From Elusimicrobiota bacterium (GTDB lineage: Bacteria; Elusimicrobiota; UBA8919), in contig JBDRIG010000018.1 in assembly GCA_043816185.1 (NCBI GenBank), positions 1-10,641 on the forward strand: a DNA stretch of 10,641 nt, written 5' to 3'. This document shows positions 1-10,641 of this stretch, piece after piece. The position numbers were made by a program, and so were the translations under genes. The number at the start of each line of letters is the position of its first letter. Within the stretch, counting starts at the first letter, position 1. The notes below the pieces were generated by a model that was not told the DNA's origin, did no database searches, and was given only the letters and a program-made list of their open reading frames with translations.

Positions 1-3000
1 CACGAGGGACTTAGATTAAAAGGTTATGGCAATATTTTAACATACCTATTTAGCCCACCAAAAACAGCATACCGCATACTAACACGCCAGAAAAAAATCG
101 AATCTTTACAAGATAAATTAGCAGAATCTGAAGTAAAAATAACAGAACTTGAAAAAAAAGCGAAAATATTTGAAGAACTCGCAGGTAAGGATGCACTTAC
201 CGGAATTTACAATTTTAGATTCTTTAATGAGTTTTTAAGAAAAGAAGTTGAACGAGCAAAGAAACAGACAGGTATAGGTGGACAGACAAGAAGAAAAGAA
301 TTTGAAACTAGTTTATCTCTAATAACATTTGATATTGATTTCTTCAAAAAAGTAAACGATGTTTATGGACACGGTGTAGGCGATAAAGTGTTAAAAGCCA
401 TATCAGAAACTGTAAGTAAAAATATTAGAGAAACAGATGTTTTTGCACGTGTTGGTGGAGAAGAGTTTGCCATAATTTTACCTCAAACTAATGAAGACGG
501 TGCAAGAAAACTTGCCGAGAAAATAAGAAAAGCAGTAGAAGATTTGCGTGTTGAAGGTGATAGAACAAAAGTTTCAGTAACCATAAGTTTGGGCGTTTGT
601 GAATATAAAGATAATGTTACCAGTGATATATTTTATAAAAACGCAGACAGTGCACTTTATAAATCAAAAGATGCAGGAAGAAATAAAGTAACTGTATATA
701 ATATTATACCAGAGCCAAAGACAGACCAAAGTCAAAAACCGCAAGTTAAATTGCAAGATGTTCAAGATCAAGATGCTTTGAAATCGAAAGAGTTGGAAAA
801 AATTCAAAATGCTTTGAAGAGTATTAATTTGAAAGAAGGTGGGAACACACTAAGTACCATAGCACCTCGTCGCTGGGACAAAGAACCACCCGTAAATTTT
901 GATGAAATGATTGAATATTATCGGCAAAACGGACACGAATCACCATTAGAAAAAATCGAATTGCTTATTAACGACGATTTTGATAAGTATTTAGAATATA
1001 AACAGTTGATGGAAGAATTACTTCCTTATAAGAAATATCTACTCAATTCCGAGAAAAATAATAATAATATTAAAGTTTTTCTTGACAAAACTGACAAAAC
1101 AATGTTTTCTGTATTGGCACAATTGATATATTATGTGCCTTCGCATGGAACTTTTGAGAAAACTAAATCACAATTACAAGAACTTAAAAAACGATTGAAA
1201 GAATGGGATATAGCTATAGCACGCAACTTAGTAACACCGAAAAAAGAGACATCGTCTTCTAATGTCCAACTAGATACTCAGCAAAACCAACCGCTAACAC
1301 TTGACAAATTGTTAGAATTATTAAAAGACAAAAATCGTTTACCAAAAGTAATCGCATTTGATTTTGATGGTACGCTAATTCCATTGGGCAGATATACAAG
1401 ACAAATGTCTATCTCAGACGAAATGAAGGAACGATTAAAGGAGTTGTCAAAACATACAAAAATAGCTATCATTACTGGCTCATCATTTGAGACCGTGAAT
1501 GAACTACTGGGAGATTTAAGTGTGTCTGTATCGTATATTTTTACATCAAACGGAGCCACACTTTATGAGAATCGTAATGGCGAGAATTTTAAAAAGACCT
1601 ATTCTGAAAAGTTTAATGAAGACGAAATCAGTAATATAAAGGAAATTTTTAATCAAGTAATGGAAGATAGTGTTTTAAAGGGAGAGATAGTAATAGATAG
1701 GGATGATAGAATTTATGTTCAATTAGAGGCTGAGGATGAAGGTAAGGCATTCGAAATGGCAAGAACAGTTCAAAGTTCGCCGAATTTGAAAAAGTTTGGA
1801 TATCAAGTTTTTATTAATAAGGCAAAAGGAACAATAACAATTTCAAAAAAAGCAAAAGATTTTGCCATAAATGAACTTATACAACGAGAAAATACAGATG
1901 ATATTTTATATGTTGGTGATGAGTTTTCAGAATTTGGTAACGATGTTTCAGTTTTGAATGTTTCCAAAATACTTGTTGGAGAGACACCATCAAACGAAGA
2001 TACAGAAAAATTTGCAGGAAACCTTCTCGATTTATATAAGCCATCTCCTGAGACATCTCCAACGGAAAAAAGTGTGGTGGTAGTGAAAAAACCTGCTCCA
2101 AAAGTAACACCGGAAAAAGATATCAAAGATACCAATATTTTAAATTTAGCAACAAAACAAGCACAGAATGCCACCAATCCTGCAAAATTAATAATAGAAA
2201 CAGCGAAAGAAACAGCAATTCCAAAAAGCCACAAATGGCTAAAAGAAGAACATCCAGAACTATACGGTAAAACGATGTTCCATGTTTCACCAGGATTCAA
2301 GCCATCACCAGATTTTCTATCTCTGTTTGATGATGAAAAGATGCGTATAAGAGTAGCAAATGGACACCAGACGGGTGGATTAGAACCGTTGGTTACCGAG
2401 GAATTAGTCGAACTTACAGACATGGGAATGAACGCCATTGGTGTAAGTTTGTTATACAAATACGCACCGATGCAACAAGATGATGGCTCTATAAAATTAG
2501 AAAAAATTGATTATGAAAAAGCGATTGAAAAAGAGAAACTTGTATATTTAGGAAAAGTTGGAGTTCCAATAGAAGGTAAAGATGTGATAGTAAGAGTCTG
2601 GGCGGCATCATTTAATACGAAGGGTAGCAATAAAGCAGTAGTTCTGTATTTAGATTATGATGACATAACCACGCAAATTTACCCTGGTGACTTAGAATTA
2701 AGAGCAAAACAGATGCTGTTATTAGGCCGTGGGACACTATCTATCGTAAAAGAAATTTTAGAAGGAAAGCCTGAATTTAGAGAAAAGATAATTAATTTAG
2801 GACTTCCGTTTGGAAAAATAGAACCAGCAATTATACAGATGAACGAGGCATTGACGGTATTTGCACATCCCAAAACAATAAATGACAAGTTTATAGATGA
2901 TCCAAAGCTAAATTCTATTACATATGGATTTACAACACATACACCAGTAGAAGCAGGATTACAAAAGTTGCCGACGGAATGGGCTGATAGAATAAAATTA

Positions 3001-6000
3001 AATCCTGAATTGTGGAGATATTCGATAATAAGAAATGAAAACCAACTTGATTTGACAAAGATAGCGATGATATTGGCAAACATAAGAAATGCTGTATCGA
3101 AAGAACATGGTATGGTGATAGAACAAAAGTTGTATCCCGAATTTAAAGGTTTGATAAAAGGTATTGTTAATGGTATTAGTTTATTACACTGGCAAATCAA
3201 AGAGATGGGTGAATTGGTAGACGAAGAATATACAGAAAAAAATGTTAATAAAATGGTTGGAGTACATAGTCAAGCGAAACAAAAACTGGCAAATTGGATT
3301 TATGAAAAAACAGGAACGAGTTTAGACACAACAAAACTTTTCAGCGTTGAAGCAAGAAGAAAAAGTGATTTTAAGTCAGTAGATACATTTATAGCTGCAA
3401 TGCGAAATCCAAGTTTAAGAAACGAATTTTTGAATTCTGATACTATCCAGATTTTCTTAGGAAAACCTCATATAACAGATAATTGGGGATTAGCGAGAGT
3501 AAAAGAACTTATTGCGCTCTCAGAAGGAAGAATAATCAAAGTAACAGAAGACGTGTGTACCCGTACGTTGAGTGAAGGAGAAATTGAATTTGATGATAGG
3601 CTTAAGAGCAGAGTTGTATTTGTACCGAACTTTAATGTCGAAGAGGCACCAATTGTGTTTCAAGGTGCCGATGTTTTATGTATGTGGTCAGTGTTGGGAA
3701 CCGAAGCGTCTGCTACTGGTTATATGAAGGGTATCGTAAATGCAATCATAACACTTGCAACAAGAACAGGTGGTCCACTTGAGCATATTCGTGAGTTAGA
3801 AAATGGTGTTTTTATAGATGACTATTTGTCAGATGGACAACCTTTGCCGAAAGGATTGATGAATGCGATGTCAGTAATATCAAATATATACAGACAAAGT
3901 ATGAAAGAAGTTGGACAAGATAAATTGAAATGGGATGTTGATTGGTATAAAATGATGTGGAATGCCTTACAGACAACACATGAGGTGGATGTAAAAGAAC
4001 AACTGAAAAAGTACATCACAGAATTATGGTCACCTGCATATAATGTTAAAATAGCGAGTATCGGCGAACCAACCAAAACAGAAACGGGGTCGGGTGTAAT
4101 GACTAACAAAACGAACTTAGCAATTGCATTACCGATATTTTCATTAAGAAATGATGACTATGATCCAGGAATTGGTAAATTTTTAGATTTAAAAAATGTC
4201 TATAAAAATAAACTTAAACCAGCAGGTGTAAATACACTAATGTTATTACCACACTTTAGACCTTCAAAAGAATCACCCTACGCACCCGTAGACGTACGCA
4301 GTGTAAATGAAGATTGTATTGATCTACTGGAAGAAGCGAAACGGTTAGGATTACCTAAAGAAAAAATAGAAAATATTAGAAGAATCTTGCATAACGAGAC
4401 TTGTGATGAAAAAGTGGATTATGGGGAAACGAGAGAAAAAGAGTTTGATGTAGCAATGCAACTTTACGATGAATTCCTCAAAAAAGAAGATAAGGAATTT
4501 ACAAAGTTCAAAGAAGCAAACGTTGATTGGTTGGCGAATTATACAGATTATATGTCGGCATGGAAAATATTGGGTAGACATCCTGTGAGCAAAGAAGAGA
4601 TAGATGGTGTATGTAAAGTTTCGCCAGAAAAATGGGCAATATACCCATCTTTATATGAATATTTGCAGTACGTTGGTTATGGGCAACTCGAGGAAGTAAT
4701 TAAATATGTTCATTCTGAGGGTGGTAAGGTAATGTTTGATATGCCTTTTTTTCGTAGCAAAAATTCAGTTGATGTGGTTTACCACAAAGAATATTTTGAC
4801 AATGGTTTGAAATCACCTGGCGCTTACTGGTTGAAAAACGGAGAACGTAGGGGTGGTATTTGGAGTGATATTGTTTTATATAATTGGGATGAATTAAAAA
4901 AAGTAGAATATCGACCAATAATTTCACCAGCGAAACACTGGTTAAAGTTCGGCTTTGATGGTTTGCGTCTCGATGCATTGCAGCTTGCATATCCACTAAA
5001 ACATCTTGGAGATATGGTTAGCCAGAGCGGAAACGAGCAGGGTGACGATTTTGTTTCACAATTGGCAGCGGCAATAAGAAGTGTAAATCCACAAGCGGTA
5101 GTTGTTGCGGAAGCATTTGAAGGTACGGATGTTCATATAAAGAATACATACGGATTTTACACAATTTCACTTGTTTGTGGATATAACACACAGAATATAA
5201 GTGATGTATCGAAAACACCCAAGGTATGGCTCCAGATTAGTTCGCACGATGTTCCAAGAGTACAAAACGATAAAGAACTCATCCAGAAATACGGAATTGA
5301 GCGTAGCAAAGAATCGTTTATTGATTTTTTCAATACGATCGTGACAAAATCGGGTGCTGAATTTATAAGTTTCACCTTGGGCGATCAATATGGCGACGAT
5401 AGACCCATAAAAGAAAGCGTAGATGGTGAAACATCGTGGACATATCGTATGCCAGCTGAAGTAGATCTTAAAAATAAGCGGTTTGATATAACAGAATTGC
5501 TGGGTAAAATGGTTTTTAATTCGCAAGTAAAAACAGAAACAGGGTATTTTCAACAAGGATACACTGTTGGAAACAGATTGAAACTGCCAAAGATTGACGA
5601 AGATATGATTAAAAAATTGCAGCAAATAGAAAACTTTTCGTTGAGATATAACGATGAAAAAGATAAGTTAGACGATATGAATGCTCCAGGGCTGCATGTA
5701 TTATTAAAAATACATCAGTATATGGAAAGTATAAAAATTGTTGATGAACGCGGTAAAGCGTCGCTATTGTATCATGGCAGAGGTAATCACTTTTTTGAGA
5801 AACTCAAAGATATATTAAATAGAGCGGGACTTACGGAAGAAGCAATTCCTGATGCTTGGGCATATATCAATCAGTTAAGTGTAAAAGCTATCACACTTAA
5901 TGATATAGAAGATAAGGCAAATATAAATAGACAACTATTTGGATTCGTTCAGGGCTTATTAGAAAATGTTCAGTACCAACAGTATTTATCTAATAACAAT

Positions 6001-7182
6001 AATATTATTCCTACAGAAGCAGGAGTCCATGATGTTTTCAAAAAACTTCTTGTAGCAGCAGATTCATTTATAATGCGGGACGAAAAAGGAAATTTAGAAA
6101 TACTCACACAGCATCCGTTTAAGTCTTTGCCTGGTTTATTACTTACAACAGGTAAATATGAAGAAGCAAAAGAAGTGTTTAGAAATTATGCAAAATATCA
6201 ACGAGATGGATTTATACCCAACACAATCACTTCGGAGGTTGGAGTTTCAGCTCCGTCGTATAATTCTGCAGATAGTTCTTTATGGTTTATAGAGGCACTA
6301 TATAAATATTATGAAGCTACAGAGGACATCAAATTTATAAAAGAACTTTTACCAGTGGTCAGCATGATTATAGCACGATATAAAAAAGTAGCGACGGATG
6401 TAGATTTACAAAACGAAATTTATTTGGATTCTGATAATCTAATTGTAACTCCATCACAATTGACATTGATGGACGCAACGCCGCAAGATAAATCGGTTAT
6501 GTTAGAAAGTGGTAAGCCAATTGGAATGCAAGCACTATTTTATAATGCGTTGGGCATAACAATCGAATTTAATAAGTTAGTTGGCAATAAAACAGTGGCA
6601 AATGAATTATCTCAATTAAGGGGTAAAATTGGATCTGCAATCAATCAACGATTTTTTGAAGAAAAAGGTAGTTATCCTTCAGATGTTGTCGATGGTGGTG
6701 AATATGGGAACGCAATTCGGTCCAATGCAATATTTTTACTTTCATTGAGCAAGGTGGGTGATTTATTAACCGAAGTAAAAAAGAAAATAATAGTTGATAC
6801 GGTTGAGAAAGAATTATTATCGCCATTTGGGATAAGAGTACAGCAGGAAGGAACCATTTTGCCACACTTGATTTCTCATTATATTTTTAGTAAAATAAAC
6901 CAGGTGAGTAATAAATCGTACGAAGAAGTGATTGCAGAAGTAAAAACCAAAATAGGCAATTTAGTCCACATAGTAAGAGAGAAAGGAACAGTTCCTGAAA
7001 TGTTTGATGGTCGTCCACCACATATGGGAGGTGGGCATATTTCAGATGAAAAGTCGGTTGCCGCAATGTTGGAGATACTTAATTTGTTTAAGTCAGAATT
7101 TAAAGAAGTTAAGAAAATTGATAGAAAAGAATTGGAAAAAATAAGTGTTGAGGAAATAAAGAAACTGCTCGGTGCAGGATAA
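1..7182 (+). CDS. Giant multidomain protein, 5'-truncated by the window (>2393 aa): GGDEF + HAD-IIB + alpha-glucan phosphorylase + GH77 glucanotransferase + amylo-1,6-glucosidase-like
   Basis: Frame +1 has no stop from base 1 (HEGLRLKGYGNILTYLF...) to TAA at 7180-7182. Bases 1-387 encode the first half of the GGDEF domain (DALTGIYN, FDIDFFKKVNDVYGHGVGDKV), so the GTG at 388 is internal. Domain motifs are listed below. Confidence 0.95.
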   Translation, partial: HEGLRLKGYGNILTYLFSPPKTAYRILTRQKKIESLQDKLAESEVKITELEKKAKIFEELAGKDALTGIYNFRFFNEFLRKEVERAKKQTGIGGQTRRKEFETSLSLITFDIDFFKKVNDVYGHGVGDKVLKAISETVSKNIRETDVFARVGGEEFAIILPQTNEDGARKLAEKIRKAVEDLRVEGDRTKVSVTISLGVCEYKDNVTSDIFYKNADSALYKSKDAGRNKVTVYNIIPEPKTDQSQKPQVKLQDVQDQDALKSKELEKIQNALKSINLKEGGNTLSTIAPRRWDKEPPVNFDEMIEYYRQNGHESPLEKIELLINDDFDKYLEYKQLMEELLPYKKYLLNSEKNNNNIKVFLDKTDKTMFSVLAQLIYYVPSHGTFEKTKSQLQELKKRLKEWDIAIARNLVTPKKETSSSNVQLDTQQNQPLTLDKLLELLKDKNRLPKVIAFDFDGTLIPLGRYTRQMSISDEMKERLKELSKHTKIAIITGSSFETVNELLGDLSVSVSYIFTSNGATLYENRNGENFKKTYSEKFNEDEISNIKEIFNQVMEDSVLKGEIVIDRDDRIYVQLEAEDEGKAFEMARTVQSSPNLKKFGYQVFINKAKGTITISKKAKDFAINELIQRENTDDILYVGDEFSEFGNDVSVLNVSKILVGETPSNEDTEKFAGNLLDLYKPSPETSPTEKSVVVVKKPAPKVTPEKDIKDTNILNLATKQAQNATNPAKLIIETAKETAIPKSHKWLKEEHPELYGKTMFHVSPGFKPSPDFLSLFDDEKMRIRVANGHQTGGLEPLVTEELVELTDMGMNAIGVSLLYKYAPMQQDDGSIKLEKIDYEKAIEKEKLVYLGKVGVPIEGKDVIVRVWAASFNTKGSNKAVVLYLDYDDITTQIYPGDLELRAKQMLLLGRGTLSIVKEILEGKPEFREKIINLGLPFGKIEPAIIQMNEALTVFAHPKTINDKFIDDPKLNSITYGFTTHTPVEAGLQKLPTEWADRIKLNPELWRYSIIRNENQLDLTKIAMILANIRNAVSKEHGMVIEQKLYPEFKGLIKGIVNGISLLHWQIKEMGELVDEEYTEKNVNKMVGVHSQAKQKLANWIYEKTGTSLDTTKLFSVEARRKSDFKSVDTFIAAMRNPSLRNEFLNSDTIQIFLGKPHITDNWGLARVKELIALSEGRIIKVTEDVCTRTLSEGEIEFDDRLKSRVVFVPNFNVEEAPIVFQGADVLCMWSVLGTEASATGYMKGIVNAIITLATRTGGPLEHIRELENGVFIDDYLSDGQPLPKGLMNAMSVISNIYRQSMKEVGQDKLKWDVDWYKMMWNALQTTHEVDVKEQLKKYITELWSPAYNVKIASIGEPTKTETGSGVMTNKTNLAIALPIFSLRNDDYDPGIGKFLDLKNVYKNKLKPAGVNTLMLLPHFRPSKESPYAPVDVRSVNEDCIDLLEEAKRLGLPKEKIENIRRILHNETCDEKVDYGETREKEFDVAMQLYDEFLKKEDKEFTKFKEANVDWLANYTDYMSAWKILGRHPVSKEEIDGVCKVSPEKWAIYPSLYEYLQYVGYGQLEEVIKYVHSEGGKVMFDMPFFRSKNSVDVVYHKEYFDNGLKSPGAYWLKNGERRGGIWSDIVLYNWDELKKVEYRPIISPAKHWLKFGFDGLRLDALQLAYPLKHLGDMVSQSGNEQGDDFVSQLAAAIRSVNPQAVVVAEAFEGTDVHIKNTYGFYTISLVCGYNTQNISDVSKTPKVWLQISSHDVPRVQNDKELIQKYGIERSKESFIDFFNTIVTKSGAEFISFTLGDQYGDDRPIKESVDGETSWTYRMPAEVDLKNKRFDITELLGKMVFNSQVKTETGYFQQGYTVGNRLKLPKIDEDMIKKLQQIENFSLRYNDEKDKLDDMNAPGLHVLLKIHQYMESIKIVDERGKASLLYHGRGNHFFEKLKDILNRAGLTEEAIPDAWAYINQLSVKAITLNDIEDKANINRQLFGFVQGLLENVQYQQYLSNNNNIIPTEAGVHDVFKKLLVAADSFIMRDEKGNLEILTQHPFKSLPGLLLTTGKYEEAKEVFRNYAKYQRDGFIPNTITSEVGVSAPSYNSADSSLWFIEALYKYYEATEDIKFIKELLPVVSMIIARYKKVATDVDLQNEIYLDSDNLIVTPSQLTLMDATPQDKSVMLESGKPIGMQALFYNALGITIEFNKLVGNKTVANELSQLRGKIGSAINQRFFEEKGSYPSDVVDGGEYGNAIRSNAIFLLSLSKVGDLLTEVKKKIIVDTVEKELLSPFGIRVQQEGTILPHLISHYIFSKINQVSNKSYEEVIAEVKTKIGNLVHIVREKGTVPEMFDGRPPHMGGGHISDEKSVAAMLEILNLFKSEFKEVKKIDRKELEKISVEEIKKLLGAG
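181..702 (+). other. GGDEF diguanylate cyclase domain of the giant protein, preceded by a probable coiled coil (~91-180)
   Basis: DALTG (190-204), DIDFFKKVND-YGHGVGD, I-site RETD (427-438) five residues before GGEEF (454-468), VTISLG, ADSALYKSKDAGRN. Confidence 0.95.
1345..1980 (+). other. HAD-superfamily subfamily IIB (Cof/PMM-like) sugar-phosphate phosphatase or mutase domain
   Basis: Motif I VIAFDFDGTL (DFDGT 1360-1374), motif II IITGS, IIB-type SNGA, probable motif III Lys in KKAKDFAI, motif IV YVGDEFSEFGND (GD 1915-1920, GND 1936-1944). Confidence 0.88.
2260..4044 (+). other. Divergent alpha-glucan/glycogen phosphorylase (GT35) domain
   Basis: Collinear phosphorylase motifs: GGL..., GVSLLY, ITTQIYPGD-LRAKQMLLLGRG, MNE, FTTHTPVEAG, NAVSKEHG, IVNGI, ARR, IFLGKPH, VVFVPNF, QGADV, EASATGYMK (3703-3729; PLP-binding Lys position retained). 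Confidence 0.9.
4075..4090 (+). repeat. Intragenic direct repeat copy 1 (aaaacagaaacggggt; KTETG) at the phosphorylase/GH77 junction
   Basis: 15/16 identical to 5530-5545, same reading frame. Confidence 0.6.
4099..5520 (+). other. 4-alpha-glucanotransferase (GH77, MalQ/amylomaltase-like) domain
   Basis: LPIFSLR...GIGKFLDL, LLP...SPYAP, DMPFF..SVDV, W..LYNW, RLD (Asp 4972-4974), VVAE (Glu 5110-5112), SHD (Asp 5248-5250), SWTYRMP. Confidence 0.85.
5530..5545 (+). repeat. Intragenic direct repeat copy 2 (aaaacagaaacagggt; KTETG) just after the GH77 domain
   Basis: 15/16 identical to 4075-4090, same reading frame. Confidence 0.6.
6040..7092 (+). other. Amylo-alpha-1,6-glucosidase (glycogen debranching enzyme C-terminal, GDE_C/GH133-like) domain, degenerate
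   Basis: AADSFI, SLPGLLLTTG, GFIPN, YNSADSSLWF, QLTLMDA, GKPIGMQALFYNAL, LLSPFGIR, GTVPEMFDG-PPH. Several hallmark motifs are missing (see findings). Confidence 0.85.
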
Positions 7183-7210
7183 AATCAAATTTGTAAAAAG
7201 TGGATGGGAG

Positions 7211-7216
7211 GGAGGT
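7211..7216 (+). promoter_or_regulatory. Shine-Dalgarno sequence for the receiver gene
   Basis: GGAGGT 5 nt upstream of ATG 7222. Confidence 0.8.
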
Positions 7217-7221
7217 GTAAA

Positions 7222-7578
7222 ATGGTTACAGTTCTAATAGTAGAAGATGATATTGATATATCAGAATTGATTAAGGAACGATTAGAAAGTAAGGGCTATA
7301 AAACAGTGGTCGCATATACTGGTAGTGAGGGGATTAAATCTGTCAATACCGAGAACCCGAGTATTATAACCTTAGATATTCATTTGCCTGATATGAGCGG
7401 CATTGAAGTATTAAAATTATTAAAGGCGAACAAAGATAAATCTTCAATTCCTGTGATTATTGTAACTTCCGACGATACAGTAGAAAATGAATGTAAAGAA
7501 TGTAGGGCAGATGGGTTCGTAGCCAAGCCAATAGATTTCAAAAAGTTGGATGAGATAATAAAATCAACAGCAAAATAA
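7222..7578 (+). CDS. Single-domain CheY-like response regulator (118 aa)
   Basis: VLIVEDD, phosphoacceptor Asp in ITLDIHLPDMSG, IPVIIVT, FVAKP. No output domain. Start moved from 7204 to 7222 because of the SD and the domain boundary. Confidence 0.95.
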   Translation: MVTVLIVEDDIDISELIKERLESKGYKTVVAYTGSEGIKSVNTENPSIITLDIHLPDMSGIEVLKLLKANKDKSSIPVIIVTSDDTVENECKECRADGFVAKPIDFKKLDEIIKSTAK

Positions 7579-7613: not shown

Positions 7614-7641
7614 CCTTGCCTTCTGATTGCAAAAGGCAAGG
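7614..7641. other. Perfect 9-bp inverted repeat downstream of the receiver gene
   Basis: ccttgcctt (7614-7622) / aaggcaagg (7633-7641), 10-nt loop. No U-tract, so not a canonical intrinsic terminator. Confidence 0.55.
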
Positions 7642-7732
7642 AAATTATACAAAAAACTCAAGAAATCTGTTACCGAAATTGTGAAGTATTACACGAAGGA
7701 GTGTGAACGCAACTGAAGAAGCATGCGTTGTC

Positions 7733-7768
7733 TGTCATCCCGAGGGAGCGTAGCGACCGAGGGATCTC
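7733..7768 (+). repeat. REP/RPE-like short palindromic element
   Basis: tgtcatcccgagggagcgtagcgaccgagggatctc: arms atccc (7737-7741) / gggat (7761-7765) around a GAGCGnAGCGAC core. GC-rich against the background and related to the 10424-10526 units. Confidence 0.75.
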
Positions 7769-7840
7769 GTCTCTGTCACTTCGCTTACCGTGGCAAACTT
7801 ACTCGACCGTTTTCCGCTCTTGTGTACCAGCTAAAAAATT

Positions 7841-9472
7841 ATGAGAAAACTAAAACTTTTTTTGATGAACAATTGGTTGATAGTTGTCGTTATATTTGTT
7901 TTCATTGCACTCGTTCTACTCACTATTATCGGTTTGAATTCATTAGAATCATTTTACCGCAATTTGACTCTCTCCACAATACCACTACAACTTTTACTTG
8001 CTGGATTCAACGCAACCATATTTGTTTACCTTTATATGATAGTGTTTCGTGGCGGATTCGCAGCGATGAAAAAATCCAAAATAAAACCAGAAGATATACA
8101 TATTAAATTTAAGCAGGTTATTGGGTTGGGGCAAGCAAAAAAAGAAGCGATGGAAGTTGTTCAATTATTGAACGATAGAACAAGAGTTAAAAAAATCGGC
8201 GGTAAAATTATCAAAGGTATTTTGCTTATAGGTCCGCCAGGTTGTGGCAAAACAATGTTAGCAAAAGCAATCGCTTGTGAATCTAATGTACCGTTTTTAC
8301 ATATTTCTGGAAGTGAGTTTGTGGAAGTATTTGTTGGTGTTGGTGCAAGTCGAGTTCGCAAACTTTTTAAGAAAGCACGAGAGTATGCTTATGCACACGG
8401 TGCCTGCATCATTTTTATTGACGAAGTTGAGGTTATAGGTCGCGGTAGGACATTTTCATTTATGGGTGGTGGCGAAGAAACAAATTCAACACAAAATCAA
8501 CTATTGGTAGAGATGGATGGATTGGAAAGTTCACAGGCAAATATTGTTGTTGTCGGCGCAACGAATAGTTCTTTGGAAATATTAGACAAAGCACTTTTAA
8601 GGCCAGGTAGGTTTGATAGAAAAATTTATATCGGTACACCAAACTTAAAGGAGCGAGAGGAAATAATTAAATTTTATCTGGGAAAAATAAAATATGATCC
8701 GCAAATAGATATTTCAAGATTGGCAAAAAAAACCGTCTACAGGTCGCCTGCTGATATTGAAAATATTGTGAAAGAAGCGGCACTTATTGCCGCAAGGGAT
8801 AAAAAAGACTTTGTAGAAATGAGAGATATTTCCGATGCGATGGATAGAATCGAGTTGGGATTAAAACATGACTTGTCGCTGACGCCAGAAGAAAAAGAAA
8901 AAGTTGCATATCACGAGGCGGGGCATACAGTTATTTTGTATTTTCTTCATCCAACCGACGATGTTTTTAAAGCATCAATAATATCGCGAGGCGGTGCGTT
9001 GGGTGTTGTCAGTCATCATCCAAGGGCTGAACTTTGGATGGTTAGTAAAGAAAAACTGTTAGCAGATATAAAAGTATTTCTTGCTGGCTATGTTGCGGAG
9101 AGAAAAAGATTTGGCACAACATCAAGTGGTGTGGAAAATGATTTACAAAATGCAACCAGAATTGCACATAATATGGTTTGGCAACTTGGAATGTCTATCG
9201 ATAATTCAGATAATACTTTGATAAGTAATTTTTCAGTAATAGATAAAAAAGAAATTTCGGAATCACTCAAAGAAAAACTCAATCTTCAAACATTAAAAAT
9301 ATTACAAGAATGTACAAAAAAAGTTGATGAATTTTTTAATCTTGAATGGCAAGTCGTGGAACATTTTGCAAGTAAACTTATTGAAAAAGAAGAACTTGAC
9401 TACGACGAAATCGAATCAATATTTAAGTCATTAAACAAAGAAAAACCTGACCTAAATATTCTTTCCAAATAG
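7841..9472 (+). CDS. ftsH: FtsH-like membrane-anchored AAA+ ATPase / M41 zinc metalloprotease (divergent paralog)
   Basis: Two N-terminal hydrophobic segments, Walker A GPPGCGKT (8231-8254), pore loop FVGVG, Walker [25 protein letters not shown] (8912-8926), third-ligand region [10 protein letters not shown]. Confidence 0.9.
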
Positions 9473-10423: not shown

Positions 10424-10526
10424 TGTCGTTGCGAGAGTCCCGATGTTTTTTATCGTGGCTCGTGGCAATCTCAATGTTGAAGTTCGAGATTGCTTCGTCG
10501 CTCATTTCATTCGCTTCTCGCAATGG
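10424..10526. repeat. Inverted pair of REP/RPE-like palindromic units (REPIN-like)
   Basis: Unit 1 tgtcgttgcgag...gcaatctc (10424-10472) and inverted unit 2 gagattgcttcgtcgc...ctcgcaatgg (10486-10526). Perfect pairings: gcaatctc/gagattgc and ttgcgaga (10429-10436)/tctcgcaa (10516-10523). Confidence 0.8.
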
Positions 10527-10532
10527 TATAAT
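10524..10532 (+). promoter_or_regulatory. Candidate extended -10 promoter element
   Basis: TGgTATAAT matches TGnTATAAT exactly. No good -35. Confidence 0.4.
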
Positions 10533-10617
10533 GGAAAAGCAAGCTTCCTTCCGGGGAGGTCATAAAGTAACGCATAAAAGCGCAGACCTTTTGTGATCTT
10601 TTCAAACGATCAAAAGT

Positions 10618-10636
10618 GGTGTATAATATATACACC
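10618..10636. promoter_or_regulatory. Perfect palindrome containing a TATAAT box (candidate operator/promoter or hairpin)
   Basis: ggtgtata-ata-tatacacc, with TATAAT at 10622-10627. Confidence 0.5.
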
Positions 10637-10641
10637 GGACT

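Follow-up and report, generated by a model that had tools for sequence, protein, structure and literature searches.

The 10,641 nt of contig JBDRIG010000018.1 (C18) from Elusimicrobiota assembly GCA_043816185.1 constitute the entire window analysed here and include the end of a giant gene in which enzymes of alpha-glucan metabolism appear to be strung together on one polypeptide. We propose with moderate confidence that P0001, the 2393-amino-acid (aa) protein encoded by window positions 1-7182 on the forward strand, forms the cytoplasmic enzyme string at the C-terminus of a giant protein anchored in the membrane and acts as a glycogen/maltodextrin catabolic cassette. This string would consist, in order, of a coiled-coil stalk, a GGDEF domain, a spacer, a HAD-IIB domain, a GT35-like phosphorylase, a GH77-like transferase, and a GH133 debranching module (Table 1). 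The source genome comprises 1,444,528 bases on 112 contigs and is 94.28% complete with 0.54% contamination.

An earlier sequence-only reading of this DNA had described one uninterrupted open reading frame (ORF) that starts outside the window and carries GGDEF, HAD-IIB, GT35, GH77, and GDE_C domains. Both points were borne out, as positions 1-7182 form a single stop-free frame of 2393 aa that is open at the 5' edge of the contig and each of the five Pfam domains scores above its gathering threshold. Because the window is the whole of C18 and the frame is open at this edge, the start of the ORF lies off the contig; the sole internal start listed in the frame, a GTG at position 388, is not the true start since it would truncate the GGDEF domain (residues 63-229). 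The GC content is uniform over the length of the ORF, and no segment of 1-7182 recurs elsewhere in the genome in a whole-genome comparison, so that there is no sign of a misjoin driven by repeats. A crude hydropathy scan predicted no transmembrane (TM) segments in the 2393 aa of P0001, a Pfam scan found no SecA or HEAT domain on C18, and an Rfam scan of the window returned 0 families.

The phosphorylase module is matched by PF00343 at residues 1066-1264 (E 3e-15, 56 bits vs a cut-off of 27), covering only positions 400-586 of the 713-position profile, and by the alpha-glucan phosphorylase model TIGR02094 at residues 791-1081 with 81.7 bits, below its cut-off of 191.7. Its EASATGYMK motif aligns with EASGTSNMK of the plant phosphorylase 4bqe, the lysine of which we take to bind pyridoxal phosphate. 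P0001 thus combines a family hidden Markov model (HMM) match above cut-off over a partial profile with the lysine of an EASGxxxMK-type motif, as expected of GT35, and its module is 61% identical by BLAST to those of two Endomicrobia proteins, P0002 and P0003. For the adjacent module, PF02446 (Glyco_hydro_77) matches residues 1377-1658 (E 1.4e-26, 93.8 bits vs a cut-off of 25, profile positions 1-279 of 465). When the module family is aligned as a profile with amylomaltase 1tz7 (E 1.7e-21), its RLD, AE, and HD fall on LRLD, AED, and THD; these positions are presumably the catalytic Asp/Glu/Asp triad of GH77, and P0001 has LRLD, VVAEAF, and SSHD there, so that the family HMM and the triad residues are found together.

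The last module is recognized by the GDE_C profile at residues 2040-2279 (E 1.1e-48, 166.4 bits vs a cut-off of 21, profile positions 33-266 of 367). Excerpts of PMC12219210 place the catalytic residues of GH133 at D1241 and E1492 of the yeast enzyme cgGDE and at D1261 and E1502 of its human counterpart hsGDE, and mapping from hsGDE through P0002 to P0001 shows that this Asp (in TLMD) and Glu (in VPEMF) are kept. Four motifs conserved in the family (W..WGRDTF, YHQG..WPW, SQAWS, and KxVEIQ) are lost in P0001: a 10-aa in-frame deletion takes out W..WGRDT and a 24-aa in-frame deletion the YHQG region, with WPW replaced by LPH and SQAWS by SDEKS. The same motifs are kept in 10 of 13 aligned modules and degenerate in P0001 and its giant relatives from genomes G118 and G180. 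Given this loss, GDE_C appears degenerate in P0001 and its glucosidase step doubtful, which counts against a fully working cassette. Of the glycogen-degradation assembly line described from the sequence, the three steps are indeed present and colinear with homologs, but the motif loss makes a complete line doubtful.

Upstream of these three modules lies a domain of subfamily IIB of the HAD superfamily, with an HMM match above cut-off (TIGR01484 HAD-SF-IIB, 59.1 bits vs 41.8) and motifs I-IV intact in the alignment (FDFDGT, TGSS, Lys, and GDEFSEFGND). In Pfam it is matched (residues 453-641, E 7.3e-9) by Trehalose_PPase, one of the HAD-IIB families. Sequence matches in the PDB are led by PMM2 (1.5e-6) and the Lactococcus lactis alpha-phosphoglucomutase 4bnd (5e-5), with trehalose-6-phosphate phosphatase at 0.18. 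A structure model of the domain with a predicted local distance difference test (pLDDT) score of 82 has 4bnd as its top Foldseek match (E 1e-15, TM-score 0.73), followed by phosphomannomutases, and a trehalose-6-phosphate phosphatase first appears at rank 41. Given these values of 0.18 and rank 41, we rate a trehalose-6-phosphate phosphatase as less likely than a mutase. The domain thus looks nearest to the alpha-phosphoglucomutase/phosphomannomutase type, its best sequence and fold matches being the atypical L. lactis enzyme and eukaryotic-type phosphomannomutases (PMMs), and a mutase function would follow from these sequence and model comparisons. Excerpts of PMC8808168 state that HAD-IIB phosphomannomutases also turn glucose-1-phosphate into glucose-6-phosphate.

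Several points speak against a mutase. The domain is only ~21% identical to 4bnd and the PMMs, Pfam scores Trehalose_PPase (35.5 bits) higher than PMM (PF03332, 22.3 bits with a cut-off of 22.4), the fold alone does not separate mutase from phosphatase, and canonical phosphohexomutases are present elsewhere in the genome. Because Pfam ranks Trehalose_PPase above PMM, we infer the mutase activity rather than assign it. The HAD-IIB call made from sequence therefore holds at the level of the subfamily, and the domain looks phosphohexomutase-like, which would add a step from glucose-1-phosphate to glucose-6-phosphate. In P0002 and P0003, the HAD-like domain has CDIGG as motif I without the second Asp and is probably inactive.

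The arrangement of these enzymes recurs in other proteins. In a search of proteins of similar length, P0002 (3501 aa, locus L015) and P0003 (3235 aa, locus L014) were 50-51% identical to P0001 over 69-70% of the query. Both are colinear with it across the junctions between phosphorylase, GH77, and GDE (860 of 1712 positions identical, 50%, for P0002 and 867 of 1705, 51%, for P0003) in alignments that begin at P0001 residues 724 and 742, and all three proteins share the order HAD, phosphorylase, GH77, GDE. Since the three degradative steps are colinear with these homologs, an assembly chimera, a concern raised with the sequence-only reading, is excluded for residues 724-2393. P0002 and P0003 further resemble P0001 in carrying the HAD-like domain upstream and a receiver gene downstream, whereas they lack GGDEF, have a canonical GDE_C, and are complete at 3.2-3.5 thousand aa with an N-terminal anchor and an N-terminal domain that in the P0001 genome is found on another contig (C101).

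To gauge conservation more broadly, segments of P0001 were compared by BLAST with 48 relatives of at least 1300 aa. The order phosphorylase-GH77-GDE was found in 14 of the 48 and a permuted order in 2, with GH77 and GDE together in 37. A HAD match was seen in 2 of them, P0003 (25%; 24.6% and E 1e-8 in the alignment upstream of the core) and P0158 (44%). Across 400 other genomes of the phylum, 34 have GH77 and GDE in one frame and 5 of these include the phosphorylase, and none of 10 genomes of the source genome's own family matches the cassette. Stand-alone debranching-type proteins of ~540-560 aa that are 43-49% identical to the last module occur in three genomes. When 1.84 billion representatives were scanned by HMMER with residues 1150-2349, 2420 matches reached E<=0.001 and 80 of them E<=1e-30, with many of the matched proteins being 2500-7625 aa long, and a search among proteins of 4189-5000 aa yielded an Elusimicrobia protein of 4372 aa and P0034 from Omnitrophica (4374 aa), in which SelD, HD, and RelA/SpoT domains precede a GT-B domain, GH77, and GDE_C. 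The likeness to enzyme-string giants of Omnitrophota noted from the sequence is thereby supported, with relatives of 3235-7625 aa whose names, where given, come from Endomicrobia, Elusimicrobia, and Omnitrophica. The names of the nearest ones agree with the Elusimicrobiota label of the genome. Their source names are "4-alpha-glucanotransferase" (P0002, NCBI) or "glycogen debranching enzyme", and no characterised member was found among the relatives of the cassette. As to the novelty claimed for the domain combination, the core thus recurs elsewhere, none of its relatives is characterised, and the GGDEF fusion was seen only in P0001.

The module also occurs in other company. P0175 (2684 aa) combines GH77 and GDE_C with an alpha-amylase domain of GH13 and a starch-synthase domain of GT5, and the module is joined to GT2 in P0207 and to UDP-glucose dehydrogenase in P0004. 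Two proteins of family f21 (2706 and 2916 aa, loci L044 in G282 and L045 in G274) have a signal-peptide-like start, a subtilase domain (Peptidase_S8), and HEAT repeats followed by GH77 and GDE_C; about 10 more f21 frames of 2500-2900 aa also carry GH77 and GDE_C.

The GGDEF domain is recognized with confidence by PF00990 (141.1 bits vs a cut-off of 23.8, E 3.6e-41) and TIGR00254 (E 5.6e-46). On inspection by eye, the active site reads GGEEF, an RxxD-type I-site (RETD) lies five residues ahead of it, and DIDFFKKVND forms the metal motif, so that the HMM match is accompanied by the GG(D/E)EF signature and the metal-binding Asp residues of PF00990 members. As far as its motifs can tell, the domain following the coiled-coil stalk therefore resembles a working cyclase subject to product inhibition. 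The spacer that follows (residues 234-447) has only chance-level Pfam matches at E<=1, no usable match in the protein Atlas, and no BLAST match in the 48 long relatives, and GGDEF itself is matched in 0 of these 48. Among the relatives compared, the fusion of GGDEF to the enzyme string thus appears to be particular to P0001.

We also asked what else the genome encodes for alpha-glucan turnover. PF00343 and PF02446 match only C18 in this 94%-complete genome, and the check for stand-alone glgP or malQ called for by the sequence-only reading accordingly found none. No match to glgC or glgA reaches its cut-off, GDE_C matches C18 and a weak second frame on C53, and there are four GH57 matches, one GH13 match, and one PilZ protein. 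The cassette would carry out indirect glycogen breakdown in the style of eukaryotes and archaea, with phosphorolysis releasing glucose-1-phosphate, the GH77 transferase shifting the branch stub, the glucosidase freeing the 1,6-linked glucose, and the HAD domain turning glucose-1-phosphate into glucose-6-phosphate. In P0001 this glucosidase probably works weakly or not at all, and debranching may be left to other enzymes (the four GH57 and one GH13). GGDEF could be a lineage-specific insertion that links membrane or envelope signals to local cyclic di-GMP (c-di-GMP) at the site of glycogen mobilisation, with the envelope signal being transmitted to it via dimerisation of the stalk.

If C18 holds the end of a giant gene, its upstream part should be on another contig, and the best candidate is C101, a single frame of 9632 aa that is open at both ends. 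Its start is homologous (48% identity) to residues 301-754 of P0003, i.e., the N-terminal domain that stands behind the signal anchor in complete relatives; its end holds a cluster of predicted TM helices, with many more predicted overall (hydropathy scan), and it has no Pfam match at E<=1e-5. In each of four proteins (P0155, P0158, P0160, and P0186), a single chain matches exactly two contigs of the genome, C101 in its upstream part and C18 in its downstream part. In P0158, residues 1184-2038 correspond to C101 nt 25977-28523, close to the open 3' terminus of that contig, and residues 3622-4980 to C18 nt 1336-7179, and P0002, P0003, and P0033 carry the C101-type N-terminal domain plus the C18-type part. 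Because of these relatives we regard it as probable that C101 and C18 derive from a single gene encoding at least 12,025 aa, from which ~300 residues at the start and a further unmeasured length at the join would be missing.

This linkage has to be set against the facts that no contig end overlaps C18 by at least 15 nt and no contig joins C101 to C18, that P0158 has ~1580 aa between its C101-like and C18-like parts, and that the TM predictions come from a crude hydropathy scan; sequence may be absent between the two contigs, or they could belong to two different genes. A 46-nt stretch taken at the 5' end of C18 had 0 exact matches in the metagenome contigs. The break at the start of C101 is explained by a stretch shared with contig C106, where nt 3-5039 encode a 1679-aa paralog that joins the C101-type N-terminal domain to a UDP-glucose pyrophosphorylase domain and with which the first 46 residues of C101 are identical. 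Modelling the family's N-terminal domain with AlphaFold from 5 aligned sequences gave a mean pLDDT of 64; the model had no Foldseek match in the PDB at E<=0.001, and we dropped a TraB/Tiki-like fold as a candidate on this ground.

Residues ~770-1075 of C101 (loci L016 and L017) match HD_4 (E 8e-5) and then RelA_SpoT (E 1e-5) weakly, in the right order and just below the cut-offs, and are 23% identical to the HD/RelA-SpoT region of Omnitrophica P0034; this stretch may be a (p)ppGpp module of the same giant protein. Elsewhere in the genome, C99 nt 598-22005 form a complete 7136-aa ORF with Peptidase_C39 and SecA DEAD/P-loop domains, the C-terminus of which resembles the large gene that precedes the giant gene in L014. 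Long frames open at contig ends share adhesin domains of Ig-like type, with Big_3_5, Invasin_D3, and Big_1 on C24 and C93 and FlgD_ig on C87 and C67, and may, by their domain content, be further split giant genes.

We place the tail of the giant protein in the cytoplasm because GGDEF needs GTP and because the two predicted hydrophobic helices of P0003 (9-27 and 632-650) both lie ahead of the enzymes. All domain activities are predicted, which tempers this proposal, and two observations weigh against the location: relatives start with a signal anchor, and the f21 relatives with signal peptide, subtilase, and HEAT repeats ahead of GH77-GDE_C fit an extracytoplasmic module. Both would be expected if the enzyme string were displayed outside the cell or secreted to attack alpha-glucan of prey, host, or environment, along the lines of the giant-protein model for Omnitrophota. 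This alternative, to which the N-terminal hydrophobic anchor of relatives and the two f21 proteins of 2706 and 2916 aa lend support and for which the giant-gene preprint (doi 10.1101/2023.11.21.568195) reads carbohydrate enzymes as possibly extracellular, is in our view unlikely. It conflicts with the GTP requirement of the cyclase, with the second predicted TM helix ahead of the enzymes in P0003, and with the nucleotide-using SelD and RelA/SpoT domains in the same chain of P0034, and no phosphorylase or GH77 would then be detected for the cytoplasm in this genome. That the string acts on glycogen of a host or prey, one of two options in the sequence-only reading, is therefore less likely for P0001.

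Equally improbable to us is that the cassette builds or remodels alpha-glucan, with the reversible reactions of both phosphorylase and GH77 and with the HAD domain either supplying glucose-1-phosphate or acting as a sugar-phosphate phosphatase. The C106 paralog couples the same N-terminal domain to UDP-glucose pyrophosphorylase, relatives fuse the module to GT5 and GH13 (P0175), GT2 (P0207), or UDP-glucose dehydrogenase (P0004), and the glgA/glgC matches in the genome all fall below cut-off, which would suit such a role. However, phosphorylase, 4-alpha-glucanotransferase, and GH133 together are the classical catabolic set for indirect debranching. A 2024 review of prokaryotic alpha-glucan enzymes, as far as its excerpted text goes, assigns GH133 to archaeal glycogen breakdown.

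The junction between GGDEF and HAD is without any homolog in the 48 long relatives, GC content at third codon positions (GC3) is 0.17 in the GGDEF segment vs 0.24-0.29 in the rest of the ORF, and a search of shorter proteins returned only generic GGDEF proteins of at most 50% identity and no near-identical fragment among the best 120 of 3619 matches. The GGDEF part could hence be foreign to the string, either through an assembly chimera or as an ordinary membrane GGDEF protein with a short N-terminus on another contig, for which the 3' end of C1 offers a 398-aa open ORF with several predicted TM helices and no family match. We nonetheless rate this as very unlikely, as no stop interrupts the frame, the junction is free of repeats, and GC is even over the ORF; GGDEF domains are moreover reported in many Omnitrophota giant proteins in the excerpted preprint text, and relatives point to C101 instead of C1. 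Just as poorly placed is the idea of a polyprotein cut into separate enzymes and fused for co-expression only, which could draw on the Pro/Lys-rich linker at residues 667-739, the C39 peptidase domain of the C99 ORF, the FtsH-like protease gene downstream here and in L015, and the stand-alone debranching-type proteins (~540-560 aa) in three genomes, but this protease gene is common in the phylum, with matches in 197 of 401 genomes at E<=1e-130, and does not always neighbour the giant gene.

The preferred reading of a cytoplasmic catabolic string at the end of a membrane-anchored giant can be taken one step further. Tentatively, and with considerable doubt, C101 and C18 might together form one membrane-spanning "glycogen signalosome" of more than 12,000 aa, in which an extracytoplasmic head and many TM helices would relay envelope signals to second-messenger modules within the chain. 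These would be the weak RelA/SpoT-like region on C101 and GGDEF on C18, set beside the only phosphorylase and transferase of the cell and the HAD-type phosphoglucomutase.

How does this compare with known systems? Excerpts of West-Roberts et al. 2023 (doi 10.1101/2023.11.21.568195) describe giant proteins of Omnitrophota ("Archaeovorins") as TM-rich, with GT5 glycogen-synthase-like and glycolytic enzymes and in many cases GGDEF, and state that genes of at least 10,000 aa are frequent in Elusimicrobiota. C101 and C18, if joined, would likewise form a giant TM-rich chain that strings carbohydrate enzymes. The hallmark pair of Archaeovorins in this excerpted account, C39 peptidase and SecA_DEAD, is found in our genome on the separate 7136-aa ORF of C99. 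C18 by itself has no predicted TM helix, SecA, or HEAT domain, and C101, its probable upstream part, is predicted to be TM-rich. The homology of C18 to Omnitrophota giants was compared through one Omnitrophica relative, with 29% identity. Neither "phosphorylase" nor "glucanotransferase" occurs in the main text of the preprint, the supplementary domain tables of which could list the cassette.

Eukaryotic AGL/GDE resembles P0001 in joining a 4-alpha-glucanotransferase and then a GDE_C glucosidase in one chain with conserved catalytic Asp/Glu positions, but its transferase belongs to GH13_25, whereas that of P0001 is GH77-like, the glucosidase motifs of P0001 are degenerate, and phosphorylase, HAD, and GGDEF are fused in addition. 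In Streptomyces, according to excerpts of PMC9530166, c-di-GMP acts on glycogen breakdown via GlgX; there the messenger binds a separate GH13 enzyme, whereas in P0001 the cyclase is fused in cis to the enzymes. Fusions named in excerpts of the 2024 review are TreS-Mak, GlgB-MalQ, and GlgA-GlgB, and "Elusimicrobi", "multidomain", and "c-di-GMP" do not occur within its first 300,000 characters. A 2026 Omnitrophota preprint contains no "glycogen", "GDE", "glucanotransferase", "GGDEF", or "Elusimicrob" and has "phosphorylase" only in methylthioadenosine phosphorylase. Titles and abstract openings on Elusimicrobia glycogen giants or GH77-GH133, among the matches listed, hold no description of the cassette. 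P0001 thus appears to belong among the known giant enzyme-string proteins, with a core cassette that recurs but is uncharacterised and a GGDEF fusion that seems new.

Table 1. Features of the window on contig JBDRIG010000018.1.
Feature	Position (nt)	Strand	Basis
C-terminal 2393 aa and stop of the giant ORF, start off the contig	1..7182	+	ORF call, translation, contig extent
Basic juxtamembrane-like stretch and coiled-coil stalk (residues 1-62)	1..186	+	read by eye
GGDEF domain, predicted diguanylate cyclase (residues 63-229)	187..687	+	Pfam, TIGR00254, motifs by eye
Spacer without detectable family (residues 234-447, ~215 aa)	700..1341	+	Pfam, Atlas, BLAST
HAD-IIB domain (residues 448-666)	1342..1998	+	Pfam, NCBIfam, motifs, PDB, Foldseek
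Pro/Lys/Thr-rich linker (residues 667-739)	1999..2217	+	by eye; homolog alignments begin at 724 and 742
GT35-like alpha-glucan phosphorylase module (residues 740-1350)	2218..4050	+	Pfam, NCBIfam, alignment with 4bqe
GH77-like 4-alpha-glucanotransferase module (residues 1355-1853)	4063..5559	+	Pfam, profile alignment
Archaeal-type debranching module, N-terminal part and GDE_C GH133 barrel (residues 1854-2393)	5560..7179	+	Pfam, NCBIfam, alignments
Single-domain response-regulator receiver	7204..7578	+	Pfam
FtsH-like AAA and M41 protease paralog with N-terminal hydrophobic segments	7841..9472	+	Pfam; below FtsH equivalog cut-off
LacI-family sugar-binding domain protein, 280 aa	9538..10380	+	Peripla_BP_3 E 7.5e-38; NCBIfam

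Three genes follow the giant gene on C18. In all three loci compared (C18, L014, and L015), the giant gene is followed by the receiver gene, and the FtsH-like gene lies downstream of it here and in L015 and not within the stretch of L014 examined. We rejected the FtsH-like gene as a marker of the locus, as it is widespread and not always adjacent to the giant gene. The paralog on C18 is 88% identical to one in a genome of the same genus and 74-77% identical to those in three genomes of family f13, and at E<=1e-130 none of the other 9 genomes in its own family has a match; this patchy distribution parallels that of the giant gene and makes transfer or loss of the locus as a block possible. The LacI-family protein matches PurR and related profiles only from about position 69 and seems to lack the N-terminal DNA-binding helix-turn-helix. 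At window positions 10460-10641, the final 125-180 bases are a dispersed repeat with short inverted GC-rich motifs that is found on ~20 other contigs in copies of at least 100 nt at 93% identity or more, nearly all at contig ends, and is probably behind much of the fragmentation of the assembly. Another short dispersed repeat separates the receiver and FtsH-like genes (7614-7772) and has copies of 27-85 nt on more than 20 other contigs.

Giant genes of Omnitrophota and Elusimicrobiota have so far mostly been interpreted as adhesins or weapons of the cell surface. In the present genome (1.44 Mb, 94% complete), the only phosphorylase and GH77 detected are encoded in the tail of such a gene, and the same cassette lies at the end of giant proteins in many uncultured lineages, which suggests that core storage-carbohydrate metabolism is built into membrane-anchored megaproteins. 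As the glucosidase is degenerate in P0001 and two relatives and the HAD domain in its two closest homologs, this domain decay offers a natural experiment on the steps that the fusion requires. If the signalosome were real, giant proteins of ultra-small bacteria would hold housekeeping energy metabolism and not predatory functions alone.

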